Virus record (IMG/VR): IMGVR_UViG_3300029258_001468
Strand: one strand, 5' to 3'
DNA: 47,628 nt
DNA from: a virus
Shown: positions 3,069 through 34,713 of the stretch, piece by piece
Layout of the letters: each line of letters opens with the position of its first letter
How positions within the stretch are numbered: position 1 is the stretch's first letter
Made by a program: the position numbers and the translations under genes
The notes under the pieces: model-generated
What the model was told of the DNA's origin: nothing
Databases searched by the model: none
What the model saw: only the letters and a program-made list of their open reading frames with translations

Positions 3069-4139
3069 ATGTCTCTTGAAGACATCGTCAATGTTCAAAT
3101 CAGTCGGAACACGGTCTCCGTGTCGAGGGCTGGCTTTGGTACTGCGCTCATCGTAGGGCCGAACGCTCCGTACTCGACCGCACGGACTGCCGTGTACACC
3201 AGTATCGCTGCGATGGTTAGCGCCGGATACGCTACCACCGACGAGGAGTACATAGCAGCCTCGAAGCTCTTCGCTCAGAATCCGAGTCCCACACGGGTCA
3301 AGACCGGGCGAATTGACGTCGGAGACGCAGACCTCACAGCGACACTCAACGCCATCGTTAACGAAGATAACGACTGGTACGCTCTTATCGTGACGGACCA
3401 CACGAAGGCCAACCAGCTTCTTGCTGCAGCGTGGACCGAAACGCAGAGGAAGATTTACTGCCTGTCAAGTGACGAAGCTGCAATCGTCGACACGACAGAC
3501 GGAGCAGACTCGACCTCTATCGCTGCGCAGCTTAAAGCGTCGTCGTACCTGCGTTCTTGCCTCCTCTACTCGGCAGTTGCCGATACGCAGTTCCCGGAGG
3601 CAGCAGCGCTCGGTCGTATTCTTCCTCTCGACCCCGGCTCCTACACGCTCAAGTTCAAGACGCTGGCAGGTATCACCGTCGACAGCTTGACAGCTACACA
3701 AAAGACCAACGCTCTCGCGAAGTACTGCAACACGTACACCACCATCGGTGGGGTCAACATCGTGGAAGAAGGAAAGGTTTCCGGGAACGAGTGGCTCGAC
3801 ACTATCGTCTTCATTGACTGGTGTCAAGCACGTATCACCGAGGGTGTTTACGGCGTCTATGTCAACAACGACAAGCTGCCCTACACCGACGCTGGTATCG
3901 CTGCCCACGAAGCCGAAATCGCTAAGGTCGGCGATCAGGGCATTGCACAGGGAGGAGTATCACCCTACGCAGAGGACAGCGACGGAAACCAGATAGGCGG
4001 ATACTTCATCGTGCTGCCTAAGCTGGAAGACATATCAGCAGCAGACAAGAACAACCGGATTTTGAACGGCGTCAAGTTCACCTTCTACCTTGCAGGTGCC
4101 ATTCACGCGTCGGTCATCAACGGAATCGTGACGGTATAA
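3069..4139 (+). CDS. Contractile tail sheath protein (DUF3383-like)
   Basis: AAGGAG RBS, 356 aa. N-terminus (VQISRNT.SVSRAGFG..LI) and the sheath-tube-chaperone-tape measure gene order are typical. Confidence 0.7.
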   Translation: MSLEDIVNVQISRNTVSVSRAGFGTALIVGPNAPYSTARTAVYTSIAAMVSAGYATTDEEYIAASKLFAQNPSPTRVKTGRIDVGDADLTATLNAIVNEDNDWYALIVTDHTKANQLLAAAWTETQRKIYCLSSDEAAIVDTTDGADSTSIAAQLKASSYLRSCLLYSAVADTQFPEAAALGRILPLDPGSYTLKFKTLAGITVDSLTATQKTNALAKYCNTYTTIGGVNIVEEGKVSGNEWLDTIVFIDWCQARITEGVYGVYVNNDKLPYTDAGIAAHEAEIAKVGDQGIAQGGVSPYAEDSDGNQIGGYFIVLPKLEDISAADKNNRILNGVKFTFYLAGAIHASVINGIVTV

Positions 4140-7637: not shown

Positions 7638-7973
7638 ATGCTGACGATACCGTGGTCTGACTTCCCGTCTTTTTCGCAAGAGTGCACGCTCGACGGCGTG
7701 GTCTACCGGTTCCGCTTCAAGTGGAACTACCGTGGTCAATATTGGACGATGGACCTGCACGACCGGGACCAAAACCCGATACTCTTAGGTGTCAAGCTGG
7801 TCGTGCGATTCGACCTTGTCAAGCACTACCCCGGACGAGCGGTACCACCGGGCGTGTTCGTTGTGACGGACCCGAAGGGAGAAATTGACAGAGTAGAAGA
7901 AGGTGACATGGGAGTCAATACGCAGTTAACGTACTTTACAGAGGCGGAAGCCGAAGCGCAGGGCCTACGATGA
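7638..7973 (+). CDS. Hypothetical tail/baseplate protein
   Basis: GAGGA RBS, ATGA-coupled to the next gene. Confidence 0.6.
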   Translation: MLTIPWSDFPSFSQECTLDGVVYRFRFKWNYRGQYWTMDLHDRDQNPILLGVKLVVRFDLVKHYPGRAVPPGVFVVTDPKGEIDRVEEGDMGVNTQLTYFTEAEAEAQGLR

Positions 7974-8821
7974 GCCAGTTTGACCGAATAGCGTCCCTCA
8001 TCATTGGTGAGGAAGGAAGCTCCGAAGCGATTCAGGTACAGGACCTCCGTATCGGCTTTTCAGTTACGAAGACGAACGACAAGACGACGAACAAAGGACA
8101 GGTGACGGTGTACAACCTGAACTTGGACACGCAGAACAAGCTTGACAGGATAGAAGGCTTTGTCACTTTACAGGCGGGATATGTGCAGGGCGACGGTCTA
8201 CAGAACGTGTTCACCGGCGACATCACCGTGGTGTCTACCCGGTACGAACCACCGGACGTCATCACGACGATTCAGTGCAACGACGGCTTCCGCAAGCTGC
8301 GCGATTCGAGAGGTGCTTTTTCCTACGCTGCCGGTACGAAGGTACAAGACGTGCTAAGCGACCTGCTCTCTCGCTTCAACATAGCCCGGAAGTCGAACAG
8401 CATCGACGTACCGGACTTCGAATACGTTAACGGAGTTTCGTTCGGCGGACCGGTCAAGACGCTCCTCGACAAGCTTATGGGCACGGTCGGGTACGTTTGG
8501 TCGTTTCAAGACGGAGAGTTGAAGTTTTACCCGAAGAACGAAGAGGACCAAACCGAGGCATTCCGCTTGACAAGTGAGACTGGACTGATAAAGGCACCGG
8601 AGAAGGTAAGCGACGTGTCCGGTCAATCGAAAGACGCAGGAGCGAAGCCGGGGTGGAACGTGATGTCGGTGCTCTTGCCGAGCATAGAACCGGGAAATCC
8701 GGTGCGGATATCGAGCATTGCACTACCGACCCCGACCAACTTCGTGGTAGAAAGAGTCGAACACCGGGGTGACACGTGGGGAGCGGAATACGTGACCTCG
8801 CTACTAGTGAAGGAACTATGA
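7970..8821 (+). CDS. Baseplate hub protein candidate (P2 gpD / XkdQ-like)
   Basis: 283 aa. Call rests on its position between the tape measure and spike genes and an N-terminal pattern reminiscent of gpD-type hubs. Confidence 0.5.
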   Translation: MSQFDRIASLIIGEEGSSEAIQVQDLRIGFSVTKTNDKTTNKGQVTVYNLNLDTQNKLDRIEGFVTLQAGYVQGDGLQNVFTGDITVVSTRYEPPDVITTIQCNDGFRKLRDSRGAFSYAAGTKVQDVLSDLLSRFNIARKSNSIDVPDFEYVNGVSFGGPVKTLLDKLMGTVGYVWSFQDGELKFYPKNEEDQTEAFRLTSETGLIKAPEKVSDVSGQSKDAGAKPGWNVMSVLLPSIEPGNPVRISSIALPTPTNFVVERVEHRGDTWGAEYVTSLLVKEL

Positions 8822-9764: not shown

Positions 9765-10129
9765 TGGCGGAAATAAAAGACCTTAAGCTATCGGACGACT
9801 TGCACGACCTCGTGTTCGAGGACTACGACTTGTCGTTCGTATCCGGACTTGACAGGGTAAAACAGAACATGAGAATCCGGCTTTGGACTTTTGCCGAGGA
9901 GTGGTTCCTCGACACGTCGGTCGGTTTGCCGTGGTTCACCGAAATCAACGTCAAGGCACCGAATTTACAGGCAATAGACGCACTCCTCCGGCGCGAGATT
10001 CTCGCTGTACAGGACGTGCTTGAGATAGTGGAGTTCACCTTAGACTACAACGCTGCTGCTCGAACCATGCAGGTCGACTTTAAGGCGAAGACCAACTTCG
10101 GCGAGCTAAGCGTAAGAGAGGCGATATGA
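9764..10129 (+). CDS. Baseplate wedge protein (gpW / gp25-like)
   Basis: TGATG coupling, about 121 aa, immediately upstream of the Baseplate-J-like gene. Confidence 0.55.
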   Translation: MAEIKDLKLSDDLHDLVFEDYDLSFVSGLDRVKQNMRIRLWTFAEEWFLDTSVGLPWFTEINVKAPNLQAIDALLRREILAVQDVLEIVEFTLDYNAAARTMQVDFKAKTNFGELSVREAI

Positions 10130-11646
10130 CTTTCGGATTGACAAACGACGGTTTCACGTTAAAGCGACTGGCCGACATTCGCACCGAGATAGAGGACGCT
10201 TTCAAATCTCAGTGGGGAGAGGTCAACGTCGGAGCGGACTCGGTAAACGGTCAGCTCATCGGTGTTTTCTCGAAGCCACTGGCCGACGTGTGGGAACAGC
10301 TGGAAAAGGTGTATCTGAGTCAAAAGCCCTCCGCGTCGGAGGGGGTTTCCCTTGACGACATCGTGCAATACCTCGGCATTCTCCGCACCGCTGCTACCAA
10401 CGCAATCGCGACGGTCGCGTGCGAAGGAAACCACGGGGTTGTCATCCCGGCTGGCAACAGGGTTCGGGCGTCGGAAACACTGGAGGAGTGGGAAGCTGCT
10501 TCGGCTATCACCATCAGCCGACTTAACATGCTCCGCTCCACGTTCGAAATCGTGACGGCGAACGACAGCACGTCCTACTCGGTGACGATAAACTACCCGG
10601 TAGGAGGAGCGCCGGTCGTCAGCAACTACACGTCCGGAGTGGGACAGACCAAAGAGGCGATTGCCACGGCTCTCGCTGCCGTCGTTGCGTCGGACCACAC
10701 CGGCGATTTGACGGTGGTTGACAACTTAGACGGAACCTTCACGGTCACAGCTACTGACTTGACAACCGAATGGGCCGGGTCGATTTCCGGCGCAGACACT
10801 GACCAACCGGCAATATGGACGCCGGGTTCTTTCCTGTCAATCAACACTGGAGCCATCACCGCTCCGGCTGGAGCCATCGACACGATAGTCAACGCGGTGT
10901 CGAACTGGCGCGACGTAGAGAACCTCATCGCTGCGACACCGGGGACGGCAACCGAGACAGATACAGCTTTACGGGCAAGAAGAGAGGAGTTCATTTCGTC
11001 GGTCGGCGCTGCTACCGTCCCGAAGATAGAGTCGCGCATCCTGCAGGAAGTTGACGACGTGTCAAGCGTCTTTGTAGTCGAGAACAGGAGCAGCGTCACT
11101 GACGGTGCCGGTCGTCCTCCGCACTCGTTCGAAACCGTGGTGCAGGGAGGTCTAGACCAAGACGTCGCCGACAAGATTTGGGAGGTGAAGCCAGCCGGTA
11201 TCGCCACCTTTGGAAACGTGAACGGAGGGTCCGGTGTTGCGGTCATCGACTCGCAGGGCAACCAACAGTTCATGAAGTTCTCCCGACCGATACCGCTGTA
11301 CATCTGGTGCTACGTGGAGTTTGTCAAGTACGACGAAGAGGTCTTCCCGGCTGACGGCGTCAACCTCATAAAGGAAGCGATACGCGATTGGGGCAACGCT
11401 CTTGGCATCGGGGTCGATGTCATCCGTCAACGAATAGCGATACCGATTTACACGATACCGGGAGTCGGGACCATCGACGTGTGGCTTTACAGCAACACTG
11501 TGTCGACGTCAACTCCGGTGAGGCCCGTGCCTCCGACCGGGAACGACTACGACCAGCTGGACCACGAGGTTGCAGCGAACGAAATCTCGACGTGGACGAA
11601 CGTCGACGACGTCAACAACATCGAGGTCGTGGATATCACACCATGA
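10126..11646 (+). CDS. Baseplate J-like wedge protein
   Basis: 506 aa, with an N-terminus typical of gpJ/gp47 family proteins (GFT.KRLADIR.EIE..F...G). ATGA coupling on both sides. Confidence 0.75.
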   Translation: MTFGLTNDGFTLKRLADIRTEIEDAFKSQWGEVNVGADSVNGQLIGVFSKPLADVWEQLEKVYLSQKPSASEGVSLDDIVQYLGILRTAATNAIATVACEGNHGVVIPAGNRVRASETLEEWEAASAITISRLNMLRSTFEIVTANDSTSYSVTINYPVGGAPVVSNYTSGVGQTKEAIATALAAVVASDHTGDLTVVDNLDGTFTVTATDLTTEWAGSISGADTDQPAIWTPGSFLSINTGAITAPAGAIDTIVNAVSNWRDVENLIAATPGTATETDTALRARREEFISSVGAATVPKIESRILQEVDDVSSVFVVENRSSVTDGAGRPPHSFETVVQGGLDQDVADKIWEVKPAGIATFGNVNGGSGVAVIDSQGNQQFMKFSRPIPLYIWCYVEFVKYDEEVFPADGVNLIKEAIRDWGNALGIGVDVIRQRIAIPIYTIPGVGTIDVWLYSNTVSTSTPVRPVPPTGNDYDQLDHEVAANEISTWTNVDDVNNIEVVDITP

Positions 11647-19892: not shown

Positions 19893-20489
19893 ATGCTGAC
19901 TACAAACTTGACAGGTGCAATACGCACCGCACTACAGGACGAATACGAGGTTCAGGTCGCCCGTCGCCGAGGGATGCGCAAGTGGTCGCTTCCGACGAAG
20001 TGGCGTCCGGAGGTCGGTCGTCTTGCCGATTTTCTGATGGACCGGGGAGTCAACAGTGTATCTGCAGCACGGGAGTTCATCGCTGCTCAGTTTAACTTCT
20101 TGTCGAAGAGGTTCTGCACCGACGTGTTCAAGCTCACCTATCCACCACTGCCGGTCTTTTACACCTACCACTCCCGGCTACGACACAACAAGACCCAGCT
20201 GGTACGCGAGTCCTTCAAATTGACAACCGACAATGAGAAGATAAAGAAGACGCTGGTCTCGGAGCTGGCGTCAATCGCTGGTACCGAGCTTGACAGGCCT
20301 CGCCTCCAGTTCGCGCTTTGCAGTGGGGTGATAGGGTACCACACACTGGCCTACCTCTCTCTTTCGGACAAGATAACGAGCGACCTAGCAGGTGCCGTCA
20401 TCCGTCTGCACACAGCAGTCGACGGGGACGCGGAGTCGAAGTTCATCGACGCGCTGCGAGTCGTCAAAAAGATAGGAGCAGGAGAATGA
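19893..20489 (+). CDS. Hypothetical protein (first gene after the 200-bp structured intergenic region)
   Basis: AAGGAGGG RBS, 198 aa, ATGA-coupled downstream. Confidence 0.7.
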   Translation: MLTTNLTGAIRTALQDEYEVQVARRRGMRKWSLPTKWRPEVGRLADFLMDRGVNSVSAAREFIAAQFNFLSKRFCTDVFKLTYPPLPVFYTYHSRLRHNKTQLVRESFKLTTDNEKIKKTLVSELASIAGTELDRPRLQFALCSGVIGYHTLAYLSLSDKITSDLAGAVIRLHTAVDGDAESKFIDALRVVKKIGAGE

Positions 20490-21349
20490 CACTTCGTCAC
20501 CTCGCCGGGAAGAAACCGGCATCAAAGAAGAAAAAGGTCTCGCCTGTCAAGGGCAAGGCTCTGCGGTTGGTAGATATACCGGAAGACCCGGACCTGCCAC
20601 GTGGACACCTGTCCGTTTCACAGGTCGAAATGTACCTCCGCTGCCCGAAACAGTACGAATACCGGTACGTTGACGGGCTGGTCCTTCCTCCCGGTGTAGC
20701 GCTCATCGAGGGAGGAACACACCACGACACGGTCGAGTTCAACAACATCTGCAAGGTTGACAGCGGAGAAGATGAGGACGTGGACACCGTCATCGAGTTC
20801 TTTGAGGATATGTTCGACACCAACTCAAAGGAGCTGACGAAGGCAGCGTGGAAGCAGTCCGGCGACAAGAAGGACAACGTCATCAGCCGTGGCCGGACGT
20901 TCCTCAAAAACTACATGGAGGGCCTCGCTCCGAAAATCAAACCGGCGTGCAAGCCGGAGCAGCAAATCGAGCTGATGCTCGGCGACGTCCCGGTCCTCGG
21001 CTACGTCGATTTACAGGAGAAAAAACAGGTGTGGGACTACAAGGTCGTCAAGTCAGCGAAGTCGCAAAACGACGCCAACAACGACCTGCAGCTGACCGTG
21101 TACTCCGAGGCTACCGGCCTCCGGAAGGTCGGCTTCATCTGCTTTACAAAAGGGAATGGCGCTGTCAAGGTGATAGAGTCCGAACGCGGTGAGGGGGACA
21201 CCAAGGCAGCAGCCGTTCTCTTTTCTTCCGTGTCAAGCTCCATCAAGAAAGGAGCGTTCCCTCTGTGCAACCCGACGAACATCTTCCCTTGTAGCCGGAA
21301 GTGGTGTGGTTACTGGAACAAGTGCCGAGGGAGACACATCAAGTGGTAG
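20486..21349 (+). CDS. PD-(D/E)XK nuclease, Cas4/RecB-like exonuclease with Cys cluster
   Basis: N-terminal LRCPKQYEYRY, VDLQE...WDYK nuclease core, C-terminal C..C.....C cysteines. The longer ORF from 20318 was rejected. Confidence 0.7.
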   Translation: MTLRHLAGKKPASKKKKVSPVKGKALRLVDIPEDPDLPRGHLSVSQVEMYLRCPKQYEYRYVDGLVLPPGVALIEGGTHHDTVEFNNICKVDSGEDEDVDTVIEFFEDMFDTNSKELTKAAWKQSGDKKDNVISRGRTFLKNYMEGLAPKIKPACKPEQQIELMLGDVPVLGYVDLQEKKQVWDYKVVKSAKSQNDANNDLQLTVYSEATGLRKVGFICFTKGNGAVKVIESERGEGDTKAAAVLFSSVSSSIKKGAFPLCNPTNIFPCSRKWCGYWNKCRGRHIKW

Positions 21350-22653: not shown

Positions 22654-23179
22654 CGACCTGTATCGGTACGTCCGGGAGCACCTGCGCTCCGTTCCTCCGG
22701 TTTTCTACGACCGGGTGCGGACAGCGCTCCTGCTCAAAGGTGTCGACCTATTAGGGGAGGACCAAGACCTCATGTTCGTCGCCCTACGAAACAAGAAGAT
22801 CGACACGTTGCGCTCCTGCAAGCGCGACCGGGTGACAATGAACTCTGTCAAGACGTCGGACGTTACCGAAAGTGAGCTGCTCCCTACCAACGGGAAGACT
22901 GACATGCGTTCGTTCCTTGAGATTCTGTACATCACGTTCTTGCGTGTCAATCCACCACACCAGCGCTACCTCTCGCTCTACATTCGAGCGGTGGCGAACG
23001 GGAAGCAGCCGACGAATGAACACATCAGCTTCCTCGCCGGGTTTAACGGGAAACGAGGCTCGGTCATATGGAAGAAAATCAAGGAAACCGCTTTACAGGT
23101 GCAAAAAGAAGGAAGGGCCTATGAGCTGTACAGAGTGCGAGACCTATCAGACCTGCTGCGACGCGTACGCCTCCAGTAA
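22637..23179 (+). CDS. Hypothetical protein
   Basis: 180-aa ORF. Its 3' end overlaps the polymerase start by 59 nt. Confidence 0.55.
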   Translation: MTASTSDLYRYVREHLRSVPPVFYDRVRTALLLKGVDLLGEDQDLMFVALRNKKIDTLRSCKRDRVTMNSVKTSDVTESELLPTNGKTDMRSFLEILYITFLRVNPPHQRYLSLYIRAVANGKQPTNEHISFLAGFNGKRGSVIWKKIKETALQVQKEGRAYELYRVRDLSDLLRRVRLQ

Positions 23180-25535
23180 GCCTGTAGACGTCCTGTTCGT
23201 GCAGGACATCGTGAAGACGTACAACGGAGTCCGAGGCTACAAGACGGAGACGATGACCAAGCTGCGTCACTCGCTCCGGACGGTCTACAACTCCGGAATG
23301 AGCGTCGAGTATGTGAACCTTGTCAACTACATGCTGCCGGAGGGCAAAAAGCCGGTGAAAAAGGACATCACCGCGTGCGCCGGGTTCACTAAGCGGATGA
23401 TTGACAAGTGCAAACCACAGTATATCGTCGCTCTCGGTGCTGCCGTGTTCACCGCATTGACAGGCAAGAGTCAGTTCAAGAAGTGGGTCGGTCGGACCGT
23501 CGAGCACGAGGGGTACACGGTCATCCCGATGTTTCACCCGGATTACGCCACCAAGAATAAGGCACGGGAGCGAGAGTACGACGCGCAGTTGAAGAACATC
23601 ACGAACCAGCTGCTCGGTAAACACTCCGTCCTCGACGACAGCCGATACGAGCTTATCACCGAGGAGAAGGACATCTACAACAGGCTGCACGACCTGCGGA
23701 CGAGGGAGTGCGACACGATTCAAGCATTCGACTACGAAACGACCGGCCTCATCCCCGGAGAAGGACTGCCAGTGTGCCTGTCAATCTCGTTCGAGCACGG
23801 GCAAGCGTACTGCTTCTACTTCTTCGACCGGGACGAATACGAAGACACCGGTACGAACTCCGGATTGACAAAGACAATAAAGGAAGCGGTACGGGCGTGG
23901 ATGGAGTCGGACGTCCCGAAGGTCGCGCAGAATGCCAAGTTCGAAATCAAGTGGACGATGCGTCACTTCGGCTGCGAACCGAACAACATCGTCGGCGACA
24001 CGAAGCAGATACACCACCTCCTCCATGAGGCGAGCGATTCTTCCCTGTCAAACTTGGCCTACCAGTACACCGATATGGGAGGGTACGACACGCCGATGGT
24101 CGAGTTCCTCGCTGAAAACGGCGAAGGCTCTCACTGGAAGGCCGACCCGGAGACGATGCGTATTTACAGCTGCGGAGATTCCGACTGTACCCGGCGTATC
24201 TACGTCGAGCAGATAGAAACGCTCTTCAAGGACGCTGGCCTCAAGTGGCTGTACCGGAACGTAGTGCACCCGTCAATCTACACGCTGGCCCGTATCGAGG
24301 AACGCGGTATGCAAATCGACGTCAACCGCCTCTACGAGGTGCAGCAGGAATTGACAAAGAAGATAGCCGACACCAAGGCAGAGCTGGACGACATGCCGGA
24401 GGTGCGGAGGACGCTAGCCCGGTTCAAGAAGACGAACAAGAAGTTGACGGAGGTCAACTACGGCTCTTCTTCTCAGATGCAGCACCTCCTCTACCACGAG
24501 TGCAAGCTCCCGGTGCTCAAGACCAGCAAGAAGTCGAAGAAACCGTCGACCGGGGCGAAGGTCCTTGACAAGCTCAAATCGAAGCACCGCGTCGTGCAGC
24601 TCATCTGCAACATTCGTAGCTACACGTACCAACTCGGCGACATCGAGCAGATAGGCGACCGGTTGTCCGAAGAGGAAACCGTCTTTTCAGACTTGGTGCA
24701 GGACTACGTGGTGACCGGTCGTCTTTCCTCCCGGTCCCCGAACCTGCAGAACATCAAGGGAGGAACGGACGAAGAGCCGTCGCTCGTCAAGGAGTGTTTC
24801 GTGTCCCGGTTTGACAAAGGAGAACTCCTGCAGGTCGACTTCTCTCAGCTGGAGCTTAGGCTGGTCGGCAGCGAAGCCAACGAGCCGAAGTTCATCCGGG
24901 CCTTCAAGGACGGTACCGACATGCACACGTTGACCGCCAGCGAAATCAACAAGGTACCGCTTGACAAGGTAGAAAAGAAGCAAAGGACGTACGCGAAGCG
25001 CGTCAACTTCGGCTCCGTCTACGGCATCACCGAACACGGGCTGGCCGAGCAGCTCGATTGCAGCGAGAAGGAAGCGAAGAAGCAGCTCGACGCCTATTGG
25101 GAGTCATACACCGCTATCCGGGCGTGGACGAAACGGAACATCCGCGAAGCGCTGGAAACTTTACAGGTGAGAAACCGGCTCGGTCGCATACGGCATCTGC
25201 CGGACATCACCTCGAACCAGTGGTGGAAGCGCGAATCGGCAGAGCGCCAGTCCTCGAACTTCAAGATTCAGAGCCTCGGTGCGGACATCAACATGTGGAG
25301 CATGGCGAACATTGACCGGTACTTGACAAGGAAGAACTACGACAGCATCGTCATCGGACAGATTCACGACTCGGTACTGATAGACTGCCACCCGGACGAG
25401 AAGGACGAGGTCATTGCGCTTGTCAAGTGGGTCATGACCGAAAAGGCGATGGACCTGTTCACCTTCCTACGCATACCGCTCAAGGTGGACGTCGAAACCG
25501 GACCCCGGTGGTCCGAAATGAGGAACGTAGCGTGA
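23121..25535 (+). CDS. Family A DNA polymerase with 3'-5' exonuclease and N-terminal UDG-like (family-4-like, degenerate) domain
   Basis: Exo I FDYETTG, Exo III YSCGD. Pol motif A DFSQLELR, motif B RTYAKRVNFGSVYG, motif C QIHDS. The N-terminal Cys cluster and FHPDY resemble family-4 UDG. ATG 23121 follows GAAGGAAGGG. Confidence 0.9.
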   Translation: MSCTECETYQTCCDAYASSKPVDVLFVQDIVKTYNGVRGYKTETMTKLRHSLRTVYNSGMSVEYVNLVNYMLPEGKKPVKKDITACAGFTKRMIDKCKPQYIVALGAAVFTALTGKSQFKKWVGRTVEHEGYTVIPMFHPDYATKNKAREREYDAQLKNITNQLLGKHSVLDDSRYELITEEKDIYNRLHDLRTRECDTIQAFDYETTGLIPGEGLPVCLSISFEHGQAYCFYFFDRDEYEDTGTNSGLTKTIKEAVRAWMESDVPKVAQNAKFEIKWTMRHFGCEPNNIVGDTKQIHHLLHEASDSSLSNLAYQYTDMGGYDTPMVEFLAENGEGSHWKADPETMRIYSCGDSDCTRRIYVEQIETLFKDAGLKWLYRNVVHPSIYTLARIEERGMQIDVNRLYEVQQELTKKIADTKAELDDMPEVRRTLARFKKTNKKLTEVNYGSSSQMQHLLYHECKLPVLKTSKKSKKPSTGAKVLDKLKSKHRVVQLICNIRSYTYQLGDIEQIGDRLSEEETVFSDLVQDYVVTGRLSSRSPNLQNIKGGTDEEPSLVKECFVSRFDKGELLQVDFSQLELRLVGSEANEPKFIRAFKDGTDMHTLTASEINKVPLDKVEKKQRTYAKRVNFGSVYGITEHGLAEQLDCSEKEAKKQLDAYWESYTAIRAWTKRNIREALETLQVRNRLGRIRHLPDITSNQWWKRESAERQSSNFKIQSLGADINMWSMANIDRYLTRKNYDSIVIGQIHDSVLIDCHPDEKDEVIALVKWVMTEKAMDLFTFLRIPLKVDVETGPRWSEMRNVA

Positions 25536-25580: not shown

Positions 25581-25847
25581 ATGGCAGAGGTAGCCACAGT
25601 CCACGTGTCAAAAGGCGTCACGGTGTCGGTCGGCAAGTTCGAGTCCGTCCGTATTGACGCCACCGTTGAAGTTCGGGCCGAAAAAGGCGAAGACCCGGAC
25701 GACCTTTTCGACATCGGCTTCGAGTCGGTGGACGAGCAGGTAAACAAGCAGCTCGCCGAGATTCAGGACATCGTCACCGAAGGGTCGGTGTTTAACATGG
25801 CCAGCGCCGGAGGTTCAAGGGCGCAGAAGAGTCGTAAACGCAAATAG
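25581..25847 (+). CDS. Hypothetical protein
   Basis: AAAGGAGG RBS, 88 aa. Confidence 0.7.
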   Translation: MAEVATVHVSKGVTVSVGKFESVRIDATVEVRAEKGEDPDDLFDIGFESVDEQVNKQLAEIQDIVTEGSVFNMASAGGSRAQKSRKRK

Positions 25848-25876: not shown

Positions 25877-26899
25877 ATGGCTCTCAACAAAAGACGACTG
25901 GAGCGGTCGAAGAATCGCTCACGCGGTGGAGGAGGAGGAAACTTCCACCGGCTACGCGACGGACGCAACCTCGTCCGCATCTTTTCTTTCCCTCACGAGG
26001 TAGCGGAGGAAGACTTCACCAAGGGCATCTACAAGAAAGGCGAAGTCGAGGTCGGCGACACGTTTGACGAAGTAGAACGCGAGGTCGCCAGCCATTTCCT
26101 CGACGACGGTTCCCTCAACTGCATCGGTTCCGGATGTGAGCACTGCGCGGAAGCGAAGAAGCTCTCCGGTTCGAAGAGCAAGAGCGACCAAAAGCTCGGA
26201 CGGCAGCTGTCCGCACGTCGCCGGTTCTACGTCAACCTAGTTGACATCGAAGAATCCGACGCCGGGGTGCAACTCTCTGCTCTTCCTCAGTCGGTGTTCA
26301 ACGCGGTGTTGAACTACATCATGGACCCCGATTTCGGGGAAGAGATACTCGGCCCGGAGGGGCGCGACTTCATCATTGACAGGGACAGCAAGGAGTCGCC
26401 TGACAAGATGTACGCGGTCCGCTTGCGCGACGAAAAGAAGTGCGAGGAACTGAGTGCCGACCTGCAGGACGACGTCACCGACCTTTTCACCTGTAAAGCG
26501 CTCGAACCGGGATGGTCCAGCAACTCCGACCTGAACGAGGCCGAAGAGAAGGACGACGAAACCAAGAAGGAACAGACTCGTCGCTCCAGCCGGGCGCGTG
26601 ACAAGGACGACGACGAACCGAAGAAGTCGGGCAAGAGGTCGAGCAAGAAGAAGGACAACGACTTCGAAGACGACGACACCTCCGGCGACAAGGCTCCGTG
26701 GGACGAGGGGAAAGAGGACGCTCCTGCCTTCAAAGAGAAGGACAAGGTCACGTTCGAGGACGCCGGTGAGACATTGACAGGTAAGATCGTCGAGTTTGAC
26801 GACTCCGGCGATGTTGCTGCGGTCGAAGTCGGCAACGAAATCTACGACATACCAGTAGTCGAATTGACAGCTGCGAAAAAGAGCAGCAGACGCAGATAA
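25877..26899 (+). CDS. ssDNA-binding protein candidate (gp32-like Zn-containing core, acidic/Lys-rich linker, small C-terminal domain)
   Basis: Basic N-terminus, H-x8-C-x5-C-x2-C, then a long D/E/K-rich region. Sits in the replication module. Confidence 0.45.
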   Translation: MALNKRRLERSKNRSRGGGGGNFHRLRDGRNLVRIFSFPHEVAEEDFTKGIYKKGEVEVGDTFDEVEREVASHFLDDGSLNCIGSGCEHCAEAKKLSGSKSKSDQKLGRQLSARRRFYVNLVDIEESDAGVQLSALPQSVFNAVLNYIMDPDFGEEILGPEGRDFIIDRDSKESPDKMYAVRLRDEKKCEELSADLQDDVTDLFTCKALEPGWSSNSDLNEAEEKDDETKKEQTRRSSRARDKDDDEPKKSGKRSSKKKDNDFEDDDTSGDKAPWDEGKEDAPAFKEKDKVTFEDAGETLTGKIVEFDDSGDVAAVEVGNEIYDIPVVELTAAKKSSRRR

Positions 26900-27011: not shown

Positions 27012-28103
27012 ATGATAAAAGGAAAAGCGAACATCGTCCTTGACGGTCAGTGGGGTTCGACCGGGAAAGGTAAGCTCATCGGGTACTTAGCGCTAGCACA
27101 CGACGTGTCGCTGGCGACGTGCGACTTCATGAGCAACGCCGGACACACCTTCGTCGACGACGATGGAAAGAAGTATGTCAGCTGTCAAGTGCCTACCTCG
27201 TTCGTGAACACGGACTGCGAGCTGGCAATCAACGCCGGTGGAGCGGTCACGATAGATAGACTCCTCAAAGAGATAGAGGAGTTCGACGTCGCCGACCGCC
27301 TCACGATTCATCCGCACTGCGCCGTCATCACAGAGGAAGACCGGGACCACGAAGCGAAGGTGCTCGCCCGGATAAGCAGCACGTTGAAAGGCTGCGGAGG
27401 TTCTCTCTCCCGTAAAGTGATGCGAGTCGCAAAACTGGCGAAGGACGAGCCGAAGCTTAAACAGTGGATAGGCGACACCACCGCGTTGACTCAGAAGCAC
27501 CTGTCAATCGGTGGAACCGTGCTGGTCGAGGGAGCGCAGGGATTCGACCTCTCATTGAACCACGGGCACGAGTACCCGTTCGTCACGAGCAGGGATGTCA
27601 CGACGATGTCGATACTGAACAACGCGTGTATTCCTCCGCTGTGGCTCGGCGACGTGTACGGCTGTCTTCGCACGTACCCGATTCGAGTCGGGAACATGTT
27701 CGACGGAGAGGGCAACCAAATCGGCCATTCCGGTCCGTGGTACGACGACCACGAAGAGATCGATTGGGACAAGCTCAAGGCAACGTCCGGTTCCGACATC
27801 GACTTGACAGAGAGGACAACGGTCACGAACAAGGTCCGACGCCTCTTCACGTTCAGCCACTACCAAGTCCGCAAGTTCATAAGGGCCTGTGCACCGACCA
27901 AGCTGTTTGTGAACTTTGTCAATCACCTCTGCGCTGCCGACGTCGGAAAGACCGAGTTGGACGACCTGTCGGTGGAAACACGTATCTGGCTCAACGAGCT
28001 ACAGGAAACAGTCGGTGACGAGTGGATATCCGACGTCAAGTACAAACCCGAAATCAGCCACCTCGGAACCGGAGCGAAAAACGGCGACATGGTGGTGCTA
28101 TAA
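27012..28103 (+). CDS. purZ: PurZ-like adenylosuccinate-synthetase homologue (candidate N6-succino-2-amino-2'-deoxyadenylate synthase)
   Basis: PurA core motifs are present (GQWGSTGKGK, NAGHT, EGAQG, YPFVTS). It has only 363 aa, Ser-Thr replaces the PurA Asp-Glu pair, and the substrate loops are divergent. Phage context. Confidence 0.7.
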   Translation: MIKGKANIVLDGQWGSTGKGKLIGYLALAHDVSLATCDFMSNAGHTFVDDDGKKYVSCQVPTSFVNTDCELAINAGGAVTIDRLLKEIEEFDVADRLTIHPHCAVITEEDRDHEAKVLARISSTLKGCGGSLSRKVMRVAKLAKDEPKLKQWIGDTTALTQKHLSIGGTVLVEGAQGFDLSLNHGHEYPFVTSRDVTTMSILNNACIPPLWLGDVYGCLRTYPIRVGNMFDGEGNQIGHSGPWYDDHEEIDWDKLKATSGSDIDLTERTTVTNKVRRLFTFSHYQVRKFIRACAPTKLFVNFVNHLCAADVGKTELDDLSVETRIWLNELQETVGDEWISDVKYKPEISHLGTGAKNGDMVVL

Positions 28104-28112: not shown

Positions 28113-29255
28113 ATGCTTTACGGAGACAAAAAGAACGTGGTGTGGGTCATCGGTCGCCTTGCTGCCGGGAAAACGTCGCATATCCGTGGCATCATCGAAA
28201 CGGACCCGGACAAGCTCATGGCCGTTTTCCCCGGTCAAGCGTGCCGGGAGCACTTCGGTGCGCAGACCATGGCCGAATGTGAGAACCCGACCGCGCCCGA
28301 AATGACGGAGTCGTTCGTACGAAACCTCATCTGTGATGCAGTTGACAGGATAGAACCGGGCATGACGCTCTTCGTCGACGGTTTCCCTCGCACGCCGAAT
28401 CAGGTAGAGTGGCTGTACGACCAGTTCGTTCGGAACTCCGGGTTGGCGTGTATGTTCCTCGTTTACACCTGCGATGACGTAGTCCGCAAGGCGCGAGCGT
28501 TGAAGCGCGACGAGGGAACGAAGAACGAGTCGCTCATGAACGCTCGGCTCATCACCGACGACCGGAACCAGCTGCGCGTCCTCGAAGAGATTCTGATGCG
28601 GAACGCGTACGCAGTTGCCAACAAACGGCGGTCCGTACCGCTCACGCTCATTGACAACACCAAAGACATACCGCACATCGCCGGGATGCCTCCCTTCGTT
28701 CCTACTCAGTACGTGCCAATTGACGGGCGCATTGAACGAGCGATGGAGGACCTACGCGATGCGCCGGAGGTCGCCGGTATCTCGTTCGACGACCGGAACC
28801 TCGCGACGATGATGGCGTGCAACGCTACGCTGTCGGACCAAACGCTCGCTCCGCTGAACTTGACAATGGAGAAGCTGCGGTCCGAAGCGGTGCAGCACAA
28901 CGAAATGCCGTTGATGGCGACCCCGGTCGACTGGACCCGGCGCTTCGTGTCGCGTGCAATCGAGGAGCTGAACGAGCTACTGGAGCAGCTGCCGGAAACG
29001 TGGTGGTCGAAGGAGCTGGCCGACATCAGAAAGGCGCGTGTCGAGTTGATAGACGCGTGGCACTTCATGATGTCCGCGTCGCAGTCGCTCGGCATGGACG
29101 CGACGTTCTTCGCCCGGACGTACTACGCGAAGCTCAAGGTCAATCTCAAGCGTCAAGCGAACGGGTACGACAAACGTGTAAAGAAGAAAGGCGACGACAA
29201 CCACGTCGGCGTGGCTACTCGTCCCGGTAACGGGGAGGAGTCGACCGGCGAATGA
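28113..29255 (+). CDS. Fusion protein: adenylate-kinase-like NMP kinase (N-terminal) + all-alpha NTP pyrophosphohydrolase (MazG / dimeric-dUTPase / DUF550-like, C-terminal)
   Basis: P-loop GRLAAGKT and DGFPRT (adenylate kinase signature) within aa 1-185. AIEELNELLEQLPETWWSK ... VELIDAWHF (ExxE...ExxD metal motifs) within aa 270-320. Confidence 0.65.
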   Translation: MLYGDKKNVVWVIGRLAAGKTSHIRGIIETDPDKLMAVFPGQACREHFGAQTMAECENPTAPEMTESFVRNLICDAVDRIEPGMTLFVDGFPRTPNQVEWLYDQFVRNSGLACMFLVYTCDDVVRKARALKRDEGTKNESLMNARLITDDRNQLRVLEEILMRNAYAVANKRRSVPLTLIDNTKDIPHIAGMPPFVPTQYVPIDGRIERAMEDLRDAPEVAGISFDDRNLATMMACNATLSDQTLAPLNLTMEKLRSEAVQHNEMPLMATPVDWTRRFVSRAIEELNELLEQLPETWWSKELADIRKARVELIDAWHFMMSASQSLGMDATFFARTYYAKLKVNLKRQANGYDKRVKKKGDDNHVGVATRPGNGEESTGE

Positions 29256-30511
29256 GTGTCCTGTCCCCGGAGTTTCAGACGAACTTGACAAAGGCGATAC
29301 TGCAGGACCCGTCTTTTCTGTCAAGGTACCGGACCTACCTAGAACGCGGTATGTTCAAGGACGAAACCGAGTCCGACGTCGTGCGTCACGCATTGGAGTT
29401 CTACGACCAGTACAGTGCCACTCCGTCGCGTGACTCGTTCACGCTCTACTTGGAGAGGCAGAACTACTTGACAGAGGACATAGAGGAGTTGGTGCATCCG
29501 CTCTACGACGAGCCGGTGCTGAACATCGACTTCCTCGAAGACTCGTTGAAGGACTTCGTCAAGAAGACGCGAATCAAGGACGTGCTGTTGGAGAGTACGG
29601 TGTTGCTTGACAAGGGAGAATACGACCGCATATACGACCGCATCAAGAACACGGTGCTCTCCTTCGTGGACGGGGACGTCGGCGACCTGTTTTGGAAGGA
29701 CAAAAAGAAGGTGCTGCAGGAGCTTGACGCCGGAGAACAGTTCATTCCTACCGGCATCACCTCGCTCGACGAGAAGCTCGGTGGTGGTGCCGTGCGGAAG
29801 ACGTTGAACGTCATCGTCACTCCGCCTAACAAAGGAAAAAGCACGTCGCTGGTTAACGTCGGGAAGTACGCAGCGCTCGCCGGGTTCAACGTCGCGCACT
29901 ACACGTTCGAGCTTTCGGCGAACGTCATCAAGCGCCGGTACTTCATGGCGATGACCCGGATGAGCAAGAAGGAGCTAAAAAGGAAGAAGGCTACCGCGTA
30001 TGACAAGATACTCGACCTCGCCGACGGAATAGCGGAAGAGTCCATCATCGTCAAGCGGTACCCGGCGTACAGCTGCACGGTGCCGATGGTCCGGGAACAC
30101 ATCAACCTCGTGCGGAACAAGTACGGGTTCTTCCCGGACGTCCTCATCTTCGACTACGCGGACCTCATGCGCTCCACCAAGAGCTACGACCAGCGAAGAC
30201 ACGAGCTGTCCGAGGTCTACTACACGATGAGGGAGCTGGCCGACGAGTTCAACGCAGCAGCGTGGACCGCGTCGCAAACGAACCGGAGCGGAGCAAGCGA
30301 GGAGCTGGTCACGATGGAGGACCTCGCCGAGTGCTACGAAAAAGCAGCCTGTGCAGACGTTATGGTGTCTGTCAATCAAACTTTAGACGAAAAACGGTCT
30401 CGGCCACAGACGGCCCGGCTGTTCCTCGCTAAGAACCGGGACGACGTGTCCGAGGTGACGGTAGAGGTCGAGACCGATTGGGAGAGGGCATGGATAGGAA
30501 ACTTACTTTAG
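29252..30511 (+). CDS. DnaB-like replicative helicase (RecA-fold)
   Basis: GITSLDEKLGGG, Walker A PPNKGKST, Walker B LIFDYADL, and SQTNR. Confidence 0.8.
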   Translation: MSVLSPEFQTNLTKAILQDPSFLSRYRTYLERGMFKDETESDVVRHALEFYDQYSATPSRDSFTLYLERQNYLTEDIEELVHPLYDEPVLNIDFLEDSLKDFVKKTRIKDVLLESTVLLDKGEYDRIYDRIKNTVLSFVDGDVGDLFWKDKKKVLQELDAGEQFIPTGITSLDEKLGGGAVRKTLNVIVTPPNKGKSTSLVNVGKYAALAGFNVAHYTFELSANVIKRRYFMAMTRMSKKELKRKKATAYDKILDLADGIAEESIIVKRYPAYSCTVPMVREHINLVRNKYGFFPDVLIFDYADLMRSTKSYDQRRHELSEVYYTMRELADEFNAAAWTASQTNRSGASEELVTMEDLAECYEKAACADVMVSVNQTLDEKRSRPQTARLFLAKNRDDVSEVTVEVETDWERAWIGNLL

Positions 30512-30981: not shown

Positions 30982-31223
30982 CGGTTGTCAAGCAATACAA
31001 CCCGGTATGTTACCGGAGGGCTAGACGTGTTCCAGTTGTATCCGTCACTCAACGCCGACCAGCAGCAGCTCCCGGTAAACGACCGGCGCTAGTTGCAGCT
31101 GTAAAGCGAGTGCTGGAGAAGCTGGAACGCATCGAGCCTTTCTCCGTGCAGTGGGGTATGCTGTGCGGTATGGGGTTCGCAAGCGAACAACGACTACAGG
31201 AGTTCCTCGCATGCCACGAGTAG
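30978..31223 (+). CDS. Hypothetical small protein (TTG start)
   Basis: TTG overlaps the upstream TGA and follows GAAGAAGGA. The longer ORF from 30897 was rejected. Confidence 0.4.
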   Translation: MTVVKQYNPVCYRRARRVPVVSVTQRRPAAAPGKRPALVAAVKRVLEKLERIEPFSVQWGMLCGMGFASEQRLQEFLACHE

Positions 31224-32215
31224 ACCGTGACTACGTGTTCGAGCAGCTAGGCGATTTCCACCGTCGCAAGGAGTGGTACAACTTCCGGTGTCCGTATCAC
31301 CGAGGCGAGTCACTCAACTTCGGGGTGTCCTTCCGGGCTGGCCGGTTCCACTGCTTCTCATGTGGTGCTGCCGGTCCGCTGCCGGTCCTCCTATATGACC
31401 TGAGGGAAGGCACGGCGACGGGCTTCGGAGGCGGTCGTGGCCTCCTAGGGCCTAAGGCCCGACCCCGGCCCGGCGAGGCCAAGGAAGATACCTCGTCTGC
31501 GCTTTCTAAGCGCTTAAATTCGGGTCGGTCCGACCCCGGCCCGGAGGTGGACACCGACAGGTGGTTCCGGGACCGCTTCGAGGCCCTCCCGGAGGTGGCT
31601 GGCACGGCGCTTGCTGGTAAGATGGCGCTGGAGTACCTGCGCCGACGCGGAATACAGCTCGACCGGCTGGACGTTGGTCTACTTGACGGATACGAAGGTC
31701 GGGTGGTCTTCCCATTCTACGACCGAGGCAAGGTCGTCTTCTTTCAGGGCCGGTCATTCGTGCCGTCGCCGTTGAAGACCATCAACCCCGATGTTGAGGA
31801 CGGCTGGTATCCGAAAACCGACGTGCTCTTCCGACTTGAGTGTCTGAACGGTGGAACGGTCGTATTGACAGAGGGGATATTCGACGCCTTGAAGACGGAA
31901 CAGGCGATTGGAAGGTCACATCGAGCGAGTTGCCTACTTGGAAAGACCATCAGCCAAAGACAGATTCGGCTGCTCCGGTCTGCTGGCGTCGAGTGGATTA
32001 CCGTGTTCTTGGACGGTGACGCCAACAGGGAAGCAGCCGATCTCGCTATCAAGCTTTACAAGCACAAATTCGGCGTGCGCTTAGTCCAGTACCCTAACCA
32101 CATGCACGAAGCGGACCCCGGCTCGCTGGACGCCGGGACGATTCGCTCTCTTCTCCTTTCTGCTCGTCCTGTTGGTCCAACAACAGAGCTTGAGCTTGCT
32201 CTTTTATCCGCCTAA
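31211..32215 (+). CDS. DnaG-like primase (CHC2 zinc finger + TOPRIM) with a low-complexity insert encoded by repeat copy B
   Basis: CPYH...CFSCG zinc finger. TOPRIM motifs VLTEGIFDA and FLDGDANREAA. The linker GFGGGRGLLGPKARPRPGEAKEDTSSALSKRLNSGRSDPGPE is encoded by 31409-31545. Confidence 0.85.
   Translation: MPRVDRDYVFEQLGDFHRRKEWYNFRCPYHRGESLNFGVSFRAGRFHCFSCGAAGPLPVLLYDLREGTATGFGGGRGLLGPKARPRPGEAKEDTSSALSKRLNSGRSDPGPEVDTDRWFRDRFEALPEVAGTALAGKMALEYLRRRGIQLDRLDVGLLDGYEGRVVFPFYDRGKVVFFQGRSFVPSPLKTINPDVEDGWYPKTDVLFRLECLNGGTVVLTEGIFDALKTEQAIGRSHRASCLLGKTISQRQIRLLRSAGVEWITVFLDGDANREAADLAIKLYKHKFGVRLVQYPNHMHEADPGSLDAGTIRSLLLSARPVGPTTELELALLSA
31409..31545 (+). repeat. GC-rich structured repeat, copy B, in frame inside the primase gene
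   Basis: Shares GGGCCTAAGGCC, GGAAGATACCTCGTCTGCGCT and TCTAAGCGCTTAAATT with copies A and C. Internal 14-bp direct repeat CGACCCCGGCCCGG at 31460 and 31531. Confidence 0.7.
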
Positions 32216-34698: not shown

Positions 34699-34713
34699 GA
34701 GGGTGGTTGGTGG

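Follow-up and report, generated by a model that had tools for sequence, protein, structure and literature searches.

The window analyzed here, a single 47,628-nucleotide stretch of DNA (IMG/VR record IMGVR_UViG_3300029258_001468), holds a complete phage genome of 47.5 kb, with a G+C content of 53–58% across its length. The genome encodes a tail sheath protein, a baseplate hub and a baseplate wedge (Table 1) and thus belongs to a phage with a contractile tail, as the original prediction had proposed. Also in line with that prediction, a PolA gene lies upstream of a PurZ-family open reading frame (ORF), within a conserved replication and recombination module that opens with a PD-(D/E)XK exonuclease; the longest ORF for this polymerase starts at a GTG at position 22872, and its first ATG is the start given in the table. 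The slot between PolA and the single-stranded DNA-binding protein (SSB), which is filled here by a small ORF, accommodates ORFs of 84–92 aa in relatives of this phage, and the SSB ortholog of one relative (L013) has a weak gp32 match in Pfam. The order PolA-SSB-PurZ-NTP pyrophosphatase is kept in three relatives (L011–L013) with PurZ proteins 62–64% identical to that of the window, and is identical in Acinetobacter phage SH-Ab 15497. In L011, a gene with a weak match to the NDT family (PF05014, below the gathering cutoff) follows the fusion gene.

Homologs of the PurZ-family protein reside on contigs of 466 kb and 373 kb. The possibility that these contigs are bacterial chromosomes with prophages, which would have revealed hosts and pointed to lysogeny, was considered and rejected in view of their dense, same-strand small ORFs and phage-type replication genes, and both look like jumbo phages. 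In one jumbo-phage relative, PurZ is directly followed by a kinase of the dNK family. An exact-protein look-up with the window's own PurZ found no other contig.

Table 1. Coordinates and supporting evidence for the annotated genes of the window
Feature	Coordinates	Strand	Evidence and remarks
Tail sheath protein	3069..4139	+	PHROG 205, E=1.1e-97
Baseplate hub	7970..8821		
Baseplate wedge	10126..11646		
PD-(D/E)XK exonuclease, first gene of the conserved module	20318..21349	+	PF12705; PHROG exonuclease match
PolA with N-terminal UDG-superfamily and 3'-5' exonuclease domains	23121..25535	+	PF03167, PF01612, PF00476
Small ORF between PolA and SSB	25581..25847	+	88 aa; without Pfam match
gp32-like SSB, directly upstream of PurZ	25877..26899	+	PHROG 1192, E=2.3e-14
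Putative PurZ-family N6-succino-2-amino-2'-deoxyadenylate synthase	27012..28103	+	363 aa; Pfam, PHROGs, alignment, trees, AF2
NMP kinase–all-alpha NTP pyrophosphatase fusion	28113..29255	+	380 aa; Pfam, PHROGs, alignment, AF2, Foldseek, PDB profiles
DnaB-type replicative helicase	29252..30511	+	PF03796, E=2.3e-20
DnaG-type primase, zinc ribbon and Toprim	31151..32215	+	PF01807, PF13155, PF08275

Diagnostic residues of the PurZ-family protein

The ATG-to-stop frame of the PurZ-family ORF spans exactly the interval that had been predicted, and its product is 69 aa shorter than the 432-aa PurA of Escherichia coli, in accord with the predicted shortening of about 70 aa. The translation contains the motifs that had been listed for it (GQWGSTGKGK, NAGHT, EGAQG, YPFVTS, SSTLKGCGGS and TERTTVTNKVRR), with Ser-Thr aligned at the Asp-Glu of the PurA GDEGKGK, and the divergence noted for its substrate loops is apparent in the alignment, where SSTLKGCGGS is opposite E. 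coli GTTGRGIGP and TTVTNKVRR is opposite ATTGRRRR. Given the matches to PF00709 (E=5.8e-31) and PHROG 1211 (E=5.6e-62), the resemblance to PurA is not random, and the protein is a compact, archaeal-type PF00709 homolog. Its key residues include Ser16 (E. coli Asp13), Thr17, His45, Gln176, Thr269–Thr272 (TTVT) and Arg276/277, with Asn301-Phe302-x-Asn304-His305 forming the donor pocket. Across 55 relatives, the invariant catalytic residues are retained.

The AF2 model of this protein (pLDDT 95.3) superimposes on Pyrococcus horikoshii PurA (5K7X) with a TM score of 0.92 and on the PurZ of phage phiVC8 (6FM1) with 0.88, the range for the characterized PurZs being 0.83–0.88. Because these values are nearly equal, fold comparison, considered as a means to separate PurA from PurZ, is uninformative for specificity, which was judged instead on residues and phylogeny. 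The P. horikoshii enzyme (PH0438; 5K7X/2D7U) is the best overall match in sequence and fold (E=3.7e-43 by sequence, the best among solved structures) and, like the window protein, is compact and without the bacterial insertions. This match, together with the retention of Trp14 as in PurA and of an archaeal-like C-terminal segment, is what would be expected of a housekeeping-type PurA serving an auxiliary metabolic role, that is, an enzyme converting IMP, aspartate and GTP to adenylosuccinate and thereby providing more AMP and dATP for ordinary adenine DNA. Yet, the P. horikoshii protein differs from that of the window in having the catalytic GDEGKG, the GTP pocket T-M-L-D and GTVTGRRRR, and in lacking the loop insertion characteristic of PurZ.

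The substitution of Ser for Asp13 speaks against the housekeeping reading. In an alignment of 261 sequences, the column of E. coli Asp13 is occupied by Ser in 252, the window protein included, and by Asp only in the eight cellular PurAs; in a published survey, all 147 phage PurZ and PurZ0 proteins had Ser at this position, against Asp in 99% of the PurAs (PMC12884076). The PurZ-specific loop insertion after the IRV strand (S-2L A242–W250) is present as GNMFDGEGNQIGHSGPWYDDHEE, opposite the archaeal G-AGP-FPT-E, and TTVT replaces G(T/A)(V/T)T, with the Thr that corresponds to S-2L T273 and phiVC8 T262. The donor pocket, N301-F302-V-N304-H305, resembles those of phiVC8 (N294/F295/N297) and S-2L (N305/F306/Q308) and takes the place of the guanine-binding T(K/M/G)LD of PurA, to which Asp333 belongs; PurZ0 has SMADQ. 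[quoted passage not shown] All these features, along with the short length and the GSTGKG P-loop, are shared by the PurZs of phiVC8 (6FM1/6FKO/6TNH), S-2L (7ODX) and SH-Ab 15497.

Among the PurZ-discriminating positions that could be mapped, 10 of 15 are in the PurZ state (T15, P233, N294 and N297 counted), and so are S14, Y244, W252, T262, S/T273 and F295 among the 11 residues reported from metaGPA to be differentially conserved on contigs enriched for dZ. The remaining positions in that set depart from the PurZ state (W for F12, H for Y298, K for G256, T for I34 and a gap for P144); within the protein's own clade, the W variant occurs in 165 and the H variant in 58 of 247 sequences. Trp at F12 is a PurA-like state.

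Several of the same features bear on the possibility that the window encodes a PurZ0-type enzyme, a GTP-using intermediate between archaeal PurA and PurZ that would also produce dSMP and would be accompanied by Dut-like or NDT-like helpers. The PurZ0 of Gordonia phage Archimedes (7VF6), which belongs to a DutZ/DmtZ/DpoZ-1 system, likewise has Ser at Asp13, falls in the same superclade and comes from a phage devoid of DatZ, as is the phage described here. The length of the window protein and its archaeal-like C-terminal segment, which is gone from the PurZs of phiVC8, S-2L and SH-Ab, resemble PurZ0 and archaeal PurA, and the weak PF05014 gene of L011 would fit as an NDT-like helper. Nevertheless, the window protein has N-F-x-N, as in the ATP-using PurZs, in place of the guanine-type pocket S-M-x-D-Q of Archimedes, and its P-loop is the PurZ-like GST rather than the GSE of PurZ0; moreover, neither the trimeric DutZ nor DmtZ was found in the window.

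Placement among PurA, PurZ and PurZ0 proteins

Neighbor-joining (NJ) trees were constructed from 186 taxa (200 bootstraps) and 72 taxa (500 bootstraps), a distance method with only eight cellular outgroups, namely, seven archaeal PurAs and the E. coli PurA. The Ser-type set comprised the window protein, the PurZs of phiVC8, S-2L and SH-Ab, the PurZ0 of Archimedes, the homolog from Bacillus phage vB_BpsS-140 and metagenomic relatives. In both trees, all the Ser-type sequences were split from the eight cellular PurAs with 100% bootstrap support. A position inside housekeeping PurA, which would have contradicted the original prediction, was not observed: none of the bootstraps (0%) grouped the window protein with any archaeal PurA. 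All the homologs that were found in cultured phages are PurZ-type genes, too, and we regard the housekeeping PurA reading as extremely unlikely.

Within the Ser-type set, the window protein belongs to a separate uncultured lineage (97% support), and the three characterized PurZs, to which it is 34–36% identical, form a clade without it (99.6%). The branch order within the PurZ clade is poorly supported in the NJ backbone: a group of the window protein with the three PurZ references, to the exclusion of PurZ0 and PurA, received 52% support. In only 0.2% of the bootstraps did the window protein group with PurZ0 and apart from PurZ; taking this together with the pocket and the P-loop, we consider a PurZ0-type enzyme to be very unlikely. 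The sister grouping with BpsS-140 appeared in 0.4%. By the placement in the PurZ/PurZ0 clade, Ser at Asp13, TTVT, the inserted loop and an N-F-x-N pocket of the adenine-donor type, the prediction of a PurZ-like enzyme is supported, and both its family membership and its diagnostic residues are established.

The kinase–pyrophosphatase fusion and the search for other helper enzymes

The gene next to PurZ encodes, as had been predicted, a fusion of a nucleotide kinase with an NTP pyrophosphatase. The N-terminal part of this protein (about aa 1–182) is an adenylate/UMP-CMP-type NMP kinase in which, in the family alignment, the Walker A residues G14..G19-K20-T21, the motif D89-G90-x-P92-R93, Q97 and Arg128/132/145 are conserved; a disordered linker (about aa 185–225) connects it to an all-alpha domain, an NTP pyrophosphatase of MazG/dimeric-dUTPase type (about aa 225–350), with helices at 270–292, 305–325 and 330–349 in the AF2 model and with the metal ligands E285xxE288 and E311xxD314 invariant. 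Orthologs carry the ADK domain (PF00406), and the Foldseek comparison of the kinase domain gave TM scores of 0.62–0.66 to adenylate and UMP/CMP kinases alike. The pyrophosphatase matches PF08761 (27.4 bits against a cutoff of 22.9) and dUTPase/NTP pyrophosphatase PHROGs. In profile searches against the PDB, yeast uridylate kinase was the best match for the kinase (E=1.7e-10) and dimeric dUTPases for the pyrophosphatase (2e-5). By sequence and model, then, the two domains are members of the adenylate/UMP-CMP kinase family and the MazG/dimeric-dUTPase superfamily, respectively.

In S-2L and SH-Ab 15497, the gene directly 3' of PurZ encodes, respectively, MazZ and a DUF5664-DUF550 dATP/dGTP pyrophosphohydrolase, so that the fusion occupies the same location; it is also close in size to the SH-Ab protein (gp40, 385 aa), and all three belong to the all-alpha NTP pyrophosphatase superfamily with its ExxE...ExxD metal pattern. 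Membership of the fusion in the family of either S-2L MazZ or SH-Ab DUF5664-DUF550 was nonetheless rejected, the similarity being retained at the superfamily level, because alignments with these two references by BLASTP and hhalign were not significant. Unlike the SH-Ab protein, the pyrophosphatase of the window belongs to the dimeric-dUTPase family PF08761 and has an NMP kinase as the partner domain instead of DUF5664.

The helper enzymes typical of characterized Z-phages were searched for across the genome. With the sequences of DatZ, an HD-domain dATP triphosphohydrolase, from phiVC8, S-2L and SH-Ab as tblastn queries, nothing below E=0.25 was detected in the window, and no DatZ is recorded in L011–L013. 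No HD domain was present among the approximately 40 ORFs scanned with Pfam, a set that left out several small ORFs (<100 aa) and some ORFs of the structural region and in which about 25 ORFs without a match could hide a divergent or novel dATPase. DUF550/DUF5664, DutZ and DmtZ were not found in the whole genome by tblastn and among the Pfam-scanned ORFs; the Dut genes of Archimedes, used as tblastn queries for a trimeric DutZ, had no match in the window, and neither PF00692 nor PF05014 matched any Pfam-scanned ORF.

The polymerase, a replicative family-A enzyme, is likewise not of the DpoZ type, the Z-selective PolA with phiVC8-like and Wayne-like subfamilies. Of the three subfamily insertions (G349–G353, A442–P448 and P473–K491 in phiVC8), the DpoZs of phiVC8 and SH-Ab contain the first and third, neither of which occurs in the PolA of the window or in the relatives of this PolA, the second being unresolvable by sequence. 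The window PolA is 21–22% identical to DpoZ versus 27–28% to Klenow and to the PolA of Shanette, aligns with Archimedes DpoZ at 23% identity over 294 aa and has its nearest cultured relatives among SPO1-like phages. These results also show which folds the domains have, that the fusion is linked to PurZ and, within the range of these searches, that the usual helpers are missing.

These observations are relevant to the possibility that the window encodes a true PurZ, the product of which yields only partial substitution or is used outside bulk DNA, whereas the fusion is a pyrimidine enzyme (a dUTPase joined to a UMP/CMP or dTMP kinase) with no part in making Z. The failure to find DatZ or an HD domain in a complete genome, a PolA nearer to Klenow and without the DpoZ insertions, its UDG-like domain and SPO1-like relatives, and the best matches of both fusion domains, dimeric dUTPase and yeast uridylate kinase, are all compatible with such a scenario. 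Several considerations counter it. The fusion lies directly 3' of PurZ throughout L011–L013 and was found as only 11 clusters, on contigs that match in length those bearing PurZ. DatZ is dispensable in PurZ0 phages that have Z genomes and possess a Dut-like dATP/dGTP pyrophosphatase in its stead, and the full Z genome of S-2L is made with a non-selective PrimPol. The conserved Gln97 of the kinase domain, following the DGxPR motif, would correspond to the base-reading Gln of adenylate kinases. On balance, we assign a low probability to a partial or pyrimidine-directed role, although dUTP or dCTP could be an alternative substrate of the pyrophosphatase, given its best match to dimeric dUTPases, and the kinase domain, which resembles UMP/CMP kinase no less than adenylate kinase, may have another base specificity.

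A proposed route to 2-aminoadenine DNA

The reading that we favor, and consider quite probable, is that the PurZ-family enzyme of the phage is functional, that much or all of the adenine in its DNA is likely replaced by 2-aminoadenine (Z), and that the helper functions are combined in one fusion protein. From the sequences, we infer the substrate specificities of all the enzymes involved and the composition of the DNA as follows. The pyrophosphatase domain of the fusion would convert dGTP to dGMP, feeding PurZ, and probably also dATP to dAMP, lowering the concentration of the competitor; it would thus stand in for MazZ, DUF550 or DutZ and, possibly, for DatZ. PurZ would then convert dGMP and aspartate, with ATP or dATP as the phosphate donor, to dSMP, the committed step toward dZTP, and the host PurB would convert dSMP to dZMP. 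Phosphorylation of dZMP to dZDP, which has until now been attributed to the host GMP kinase, would be performed by the fused adenylate-kinase-family domain, after which the host Ndk would make dZTP, to be incorporated by the UDG-exonuclease-PolA of the phage. Because the PurZ reaction is the committed step toward dZTP, replacement of much or all adenine is the most likely outcome; with neither DatZ nor a DpoZ-type PolA, complete replacement of A by Z is something that we infer, and in the absence of the usual dATP-removing helpers and DpoZ markers, the substitution could be partial. In the sequence of a metagenomic contig such as this one, Z is read as A.

In comparison with the three characterized PurZ phages, the phage described here is contractile-tailed and without DatZ, MazZ-1/DUF550 and DpoZ, and its PurZ, in which Trp replaces F12 and His replaces Y298, represents a separate lineage. 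The closest cultured homolog is the PurA-like gene of Bacillus phage vB_BpsS-140 (MH884512; 39% identity over the full length), which also has Ser at Asp13 and a similar pocket (N-F-x-N-Y) but differs in the P-loop (GSE, not GST). In BpsS-140, a protein of the adenylate kinase family adjoins a dNTP pyrophosphatase; unlike in the window, the two are separate genes located about 9 kb from PurZ, the pyrophosphatase is a trimeric Dut (PF00692) rather than all-alpha, and no PolA is found near PurZ in the annotated region. Considering this pair in BpsS-140 and the kinase directly after PurZ in the jumbo-phage relative, the association of a kinase and a dNTP pyrophosphatase with PurZ appears to recur with non-homologous parts. 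A more far-reaching reading, possible if somewhat doubtful, is that the locus is a minimal two-gene Z module, consisting of PurZ and a bifunctional enzyme that supplies dGMP and destroys dATP, that the fusion contains the first dedicated phage dZMP kinase, and that the UDG-fused polymerase is a third, independent recruitment of a family-A polymerase to the replication of Z-DNA.

It has been well established since 2021 that phages use PurZ to replace A by 2-aminoadenine, so that the enzyme family as such is not new; the Z-phages were described as siphoviruses and podoviruses (PMC8599892, 2021). In the literature searchable here, outside which most subscription journals lie, we found no description of the fusion beside PurZ, of a dedicated dZMP kinase, of PurZ with an adenylate kinase, or of PurZ in Myoviridae or jumbo phages. 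What is new, accordingly, is the putative PurZ trait in a contractile-tailed lineage and, through homologs, in apparent jumbo phages, together with an accessory set unlike every one described, in which a conserved NMP kinase–NTP pyrophosphatase fusion is located 3' of PurZ instead. If the kinase acts on dZMP, it would fill in the one remaining step for which the pathway was believed to need a host kinase, and the two genes would make up a compact dZTP cassette for heterologous hosts that could be useful for synthetic ZTGC-DNA. More generally, a module based on such a fusion would extend the picture of 'functional convergence' in the biosynthesis of Z-DNA.

Residues and phylogeny of the PurZ-like protein

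A 363-aa ORF with an ATG start lies where the original prediction had placed a PurZ-like enzyme, its translation contains every motif quoted there, and at 69 aa less than E. coli PurA it bears out the claimed shortness of about 70 aa relative to bacterial PurA. The protein matched adenylosuccinate synthetase in Pfam (PF00709, E = 5.8e-31) and PHROGs family 1211, labeled “2-aminooxy adenylosuccinate synthetase” (E = 5.6e-62). Its top match among solved structures was a short PurA, that of Pyrococcus horikoshii (3.7e-43), followed by the PurZs of phiVC8 (3.4e-41) and S-2L (1.2e-36) and by PurZ0 (3.1e-27), the GTP-using relative from Gordonia phage Archimedes, and its high-confidence AF2 model (pLDDT 95.3) fits archaeal PurA (TM 0.92) and phiVC8 PurZ (0.88) about equally. 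Because raw similarity was indecisive between PurA and PurZ, the enzyme of the 2-aminoadenine (Z) pathway, explicit criteria were drawn from the literature. PurZ and PurZ0 form a clade apart from PurA (bootstrap 100), and Asp13, kept in 99% of PurA, gives way to Ser in each of the 147 phage sequences (PMC12884076). Residues F295, N297 and Y298 of phiVC8 and N305, F306 and Q308 of S-2L lie at the adenine of the donor ATP, and a PurZ-specific loop insertion corresponds to S-2L A242-W250 (PMC8342488, metaGPA preprint).

The window protein was aligned with 247 relatives that two database searches had drawn from metagenomes, the PurZs of phiVC8, S-2L and SH-Ab 15497, the PurA-like protein of vB_BpsS-140, PurZ0 of Archimedes, seven archaeal short PurAs and E. 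coli PurA (n = 261). The Asp13 column holds Ser in 252 of the 261 sequences, including the window protein, and Asp in the eight cellular PurAs only. The P-loop reads GSTGKG, as in the three characterized PurZs (GSE in PurZ0 and BpsS-140), the insertion after the IRV strand is present, TTVT occupies the site of PurA G(T/A)(V/T)T, and the donor pocket is N301-F302-V-N304-H305, against T-K/M-L-D in PurA and S-M-A-D-Q in PurZ0. Of 15 discriminating positions that were mapped, 10 carry the PurZ state; among the rest, F12 is replaced by Trp and Y298 by His, substitutions that are common in the window's own clade.

In neighbor-joining trees with bootstrap, all Ser-type sequences split from all PurAs at 100%. 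The window belongs to a well-supported lineage (97%) of uncultured sequences, and the PurZs of phiVC8, S-2L and SH-Ab form their own clade without it (99.6%); it joins PurZ without PurZ0 in 52% of replicates, with PurZ0 in 0.2% and with any archaeal PurA in 0%. The high score to Pyrococcus PurA is explained by an archaeal-like C-terminal segment retained in the window protein and lost in those three PurZs. The diagnostic residues and trees therefore place the protein in the PurZ group, on a deep branch of its own and with a donor pocket of the ATP type; Ser at Asp13, the insertion, TTVT, the N-F-V-N pocket and the full split from PurAs support the predicted PurZ-like identity. On these sequence features, the ORF quite probably encodes a dGMP-using PurZ.

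Genome, conserved module and relatives

The window ends overlap by exactly 144 bp, so that it is a complete, circularly closed genome of 47,484 bp, and absences from its gene set are thus meaningful. The fusion and PolA genes that had been claimed beside and near PurZ were located (see the table), and the contractile tail was confirmed by a tail sheath (E = 1.1e-97), baseplate hub and baseplate wedge.

Coordinates of features in the window and related contigs
Feature	Sequence	Coordinates	Remarks
Identical ends	window	1-144, 47485-47628	
Major head protein gene	window	ends at 856	spans circular junction
Class-3 lipase domain ORF	window	18576-19262	PF01764, E = 8.9e-20; end of tail/baseplate module
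PolA	window	23121-25535	upstream of PurZ
PurZ	window	27012-28103	+ strand
Kinase::pyrophosphatase fusion	window	28113-29255	next gene after PurZ
Minus-strand island	window	32743-36186	only sizeable minus-strand gene block; AT skew changes sign
DUF932 protein	window	33311-34441	E = 1.2e-38; in island with several ORFs without family match; gene also in L013
Head-morphogenesis (minor head) protein	window	42803-45106	C-terminal Alt-like ADP-ribosyltransferase domain, about aa 580-705
PurZ homologue	L007	10001-11704	466-kb contig
PurZ homologues	L009/L010	10001-11089	
NDT-like gene	L011	12141-12554	137 aa, after fusion gene
ADK (PF00406) and trimeric Dut (PF00692)	L017 (vB_BpsS-140)	74-1249	adjoining, unfused

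The nearest cultured homologue of the window PurZ, in Bacillus phage vB_BpsS-140, is only 39% identical, and all 210 matching phage records carry PurZ-type genes. Three metagenomic relatives (L011, L012 and L013; contigs of 45-52 kb, PurZ identity 62-64%) share with the window the module PD-(D/E)XK nuclease, UDG-exo-PolA, small ORF, SSB, PurZ, ADK::dUTPase_2 fusion, DnaB and primase. Acinetobacter phage SH-Ab 15497 has the identical order PolA-SSB-PurZ-pyrophosphatase, its pyrophosphatase being a 385-aa DUF5664-DUF550 dATP/dGTP pyrophosphohydrolase.

PurZ homologues at 58-61% identity also occur on very large contigs (up to 466 kb and 373 kb) that resemble jumbo phages; the literature searched contained no report of Z-DNA in such phages. 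In L007, a dNK-family kinase directly follows PurZ, with glycosyltransferases, ThyA and NucS around, and in L009 the homologue adjoins an IS605-type TnpB, clamp-loader genes and an intein-containing RecD-like helicase. Elsewhere in the window, the Alt-like domain on the minor head protein suggests a virion-packaged host-modifying enzyme.

The kinase::pyrophosphatase fusion and the missing helpers

Eleven clusters of the fusion protein were found, on contigs that agree in size with those bearing PurZ. In the family alignment, the N-terminal part has the core of an NMP kinase (Walker A G14..G19-K20-T21; D89-G-x-P-R93, the counterpart of adenylate kinase DGFPRT; Q97; Arg128/132/145). The C-terminal part has that of an all-alpha pyrophosphatase, in which E285, E288, E311 and D314 are invariant and make up the metal-ligand pattern of MazG/MazZ. 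The AF2 model (pLDDT 76, linker 185-225 disordered) matches adenylate and UMP/CMP kinases (TM 0.62-0.66), and in PDB the family profile picks up dimeric dUTPases (2e-5) and, more strongly, yeast uridylate kinase (1.7e-10). Membership of the pyrophosphatase domain in the MazZ or DUF550 families was rejected, since the fusion has no significant similarity to S-2L MazZ or SH-Ab DUF550; the domain is therefore a superfamily-level analogue. A kinase paired with a dNTP pyrophosphatase is a recurrent arrangement whose components are not homologous: the unfused pair of BpsS-140 parallels the fusion with a non-homologous pyrophosphatase, and in L007 a dNK-family kinase comes right after PurZ.

Three DatZ proteins, S-2L MazZ, SH-Ab DUF5664-DUF550 and the Dut-like genes of Archimedes had no significant tblastn match in the window, and no HD, NDT or trimeric dUTPase domains were detected in the other window ORFs scanned with Pfam. 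Insertions 1 and 3, the marks of phiVC8-like DpoZ (PMC8599892), are absent from the window PolA, which is 21-22% identical to DpoZ versus 27-28% to Klenow and SPO1-like PolA, and shares just 23% identity with PurZ0-associated DpoZ over 294 aa. The nearest cultured relatives of this PolA, with about 27% identity, belong to Bacillus phages of the SPO1-like type, and its N-terminal uracil-DNA-glycosylase-superfamily domain (PF03167, about aa 65-151) is kept in L011 and L012. The gene that follows the fusion in L011 is weakly similar to nucleoside 2-deoxyribosyltransferases (PF05014, 26.8 bits, under the gathering threshold) and in this is like the DmtZ/NDT component that recent work ties to Z biosynthesis; at this place the window lacks a gene.

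A possible two-gene route to Z-DNA

PurZ family membership, the diagnostic residues, intact catalytic cores and gene linkage are established, and neither DatZ nor DpoZ nor any other helper described so far was found in the window. In the proposed pathway, the pyrophosphatase domain of the fusion would make dGMP from dGTP and probably also dAMP from dATP, a role of MazZ, DUF550 or DutZ in other Z-phages; PurZ would join dGMP and Asp with ATP/dATP, host PurB would release dZMP, and the fused kinase would phosphorylate it, a step assigned to host GMP kinase in the literature. Host Ndk would then make dZTP, for incorporation by the phage PolA. Z is predicted, and likely, in virion DNA, the main uncertainty being whether dATP is sufficiently excluded for complete A-to-Z substitution without DatZ or DpoZ; precedents are the PurZ0 phages without DatZ and S-2L with its non-selective PrimPol. 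That the fusion is instead a pyrimidine enzyme (dUTPase plus UMP/CMP kinase), or that substitution is partial, is improbable even when the two are taken together.

The window PurZ is a new deep-branching member of an enzyme family that, like the Z phenomenon, is already well known. Z-phages have been described as Siphoviridae and Podoviridae (PMC8599892), whereas this phage is contractile-tailed, and its system has the conserved fusion but no DatZ, DUF550, DUF5664, DutZ, DmtZ or DpoZ. The fusion is not mentioned in a 2026 survey of Z-phage nucleotide enzymes, as the word “kinase” appears nowhere in its text, and full-text literature searches, with most subscription journals outside their coverage, returned no earlier description. 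What seems new is the accessory architecture, along with a possible phage dZMP kinase inside a two-gene Z module.
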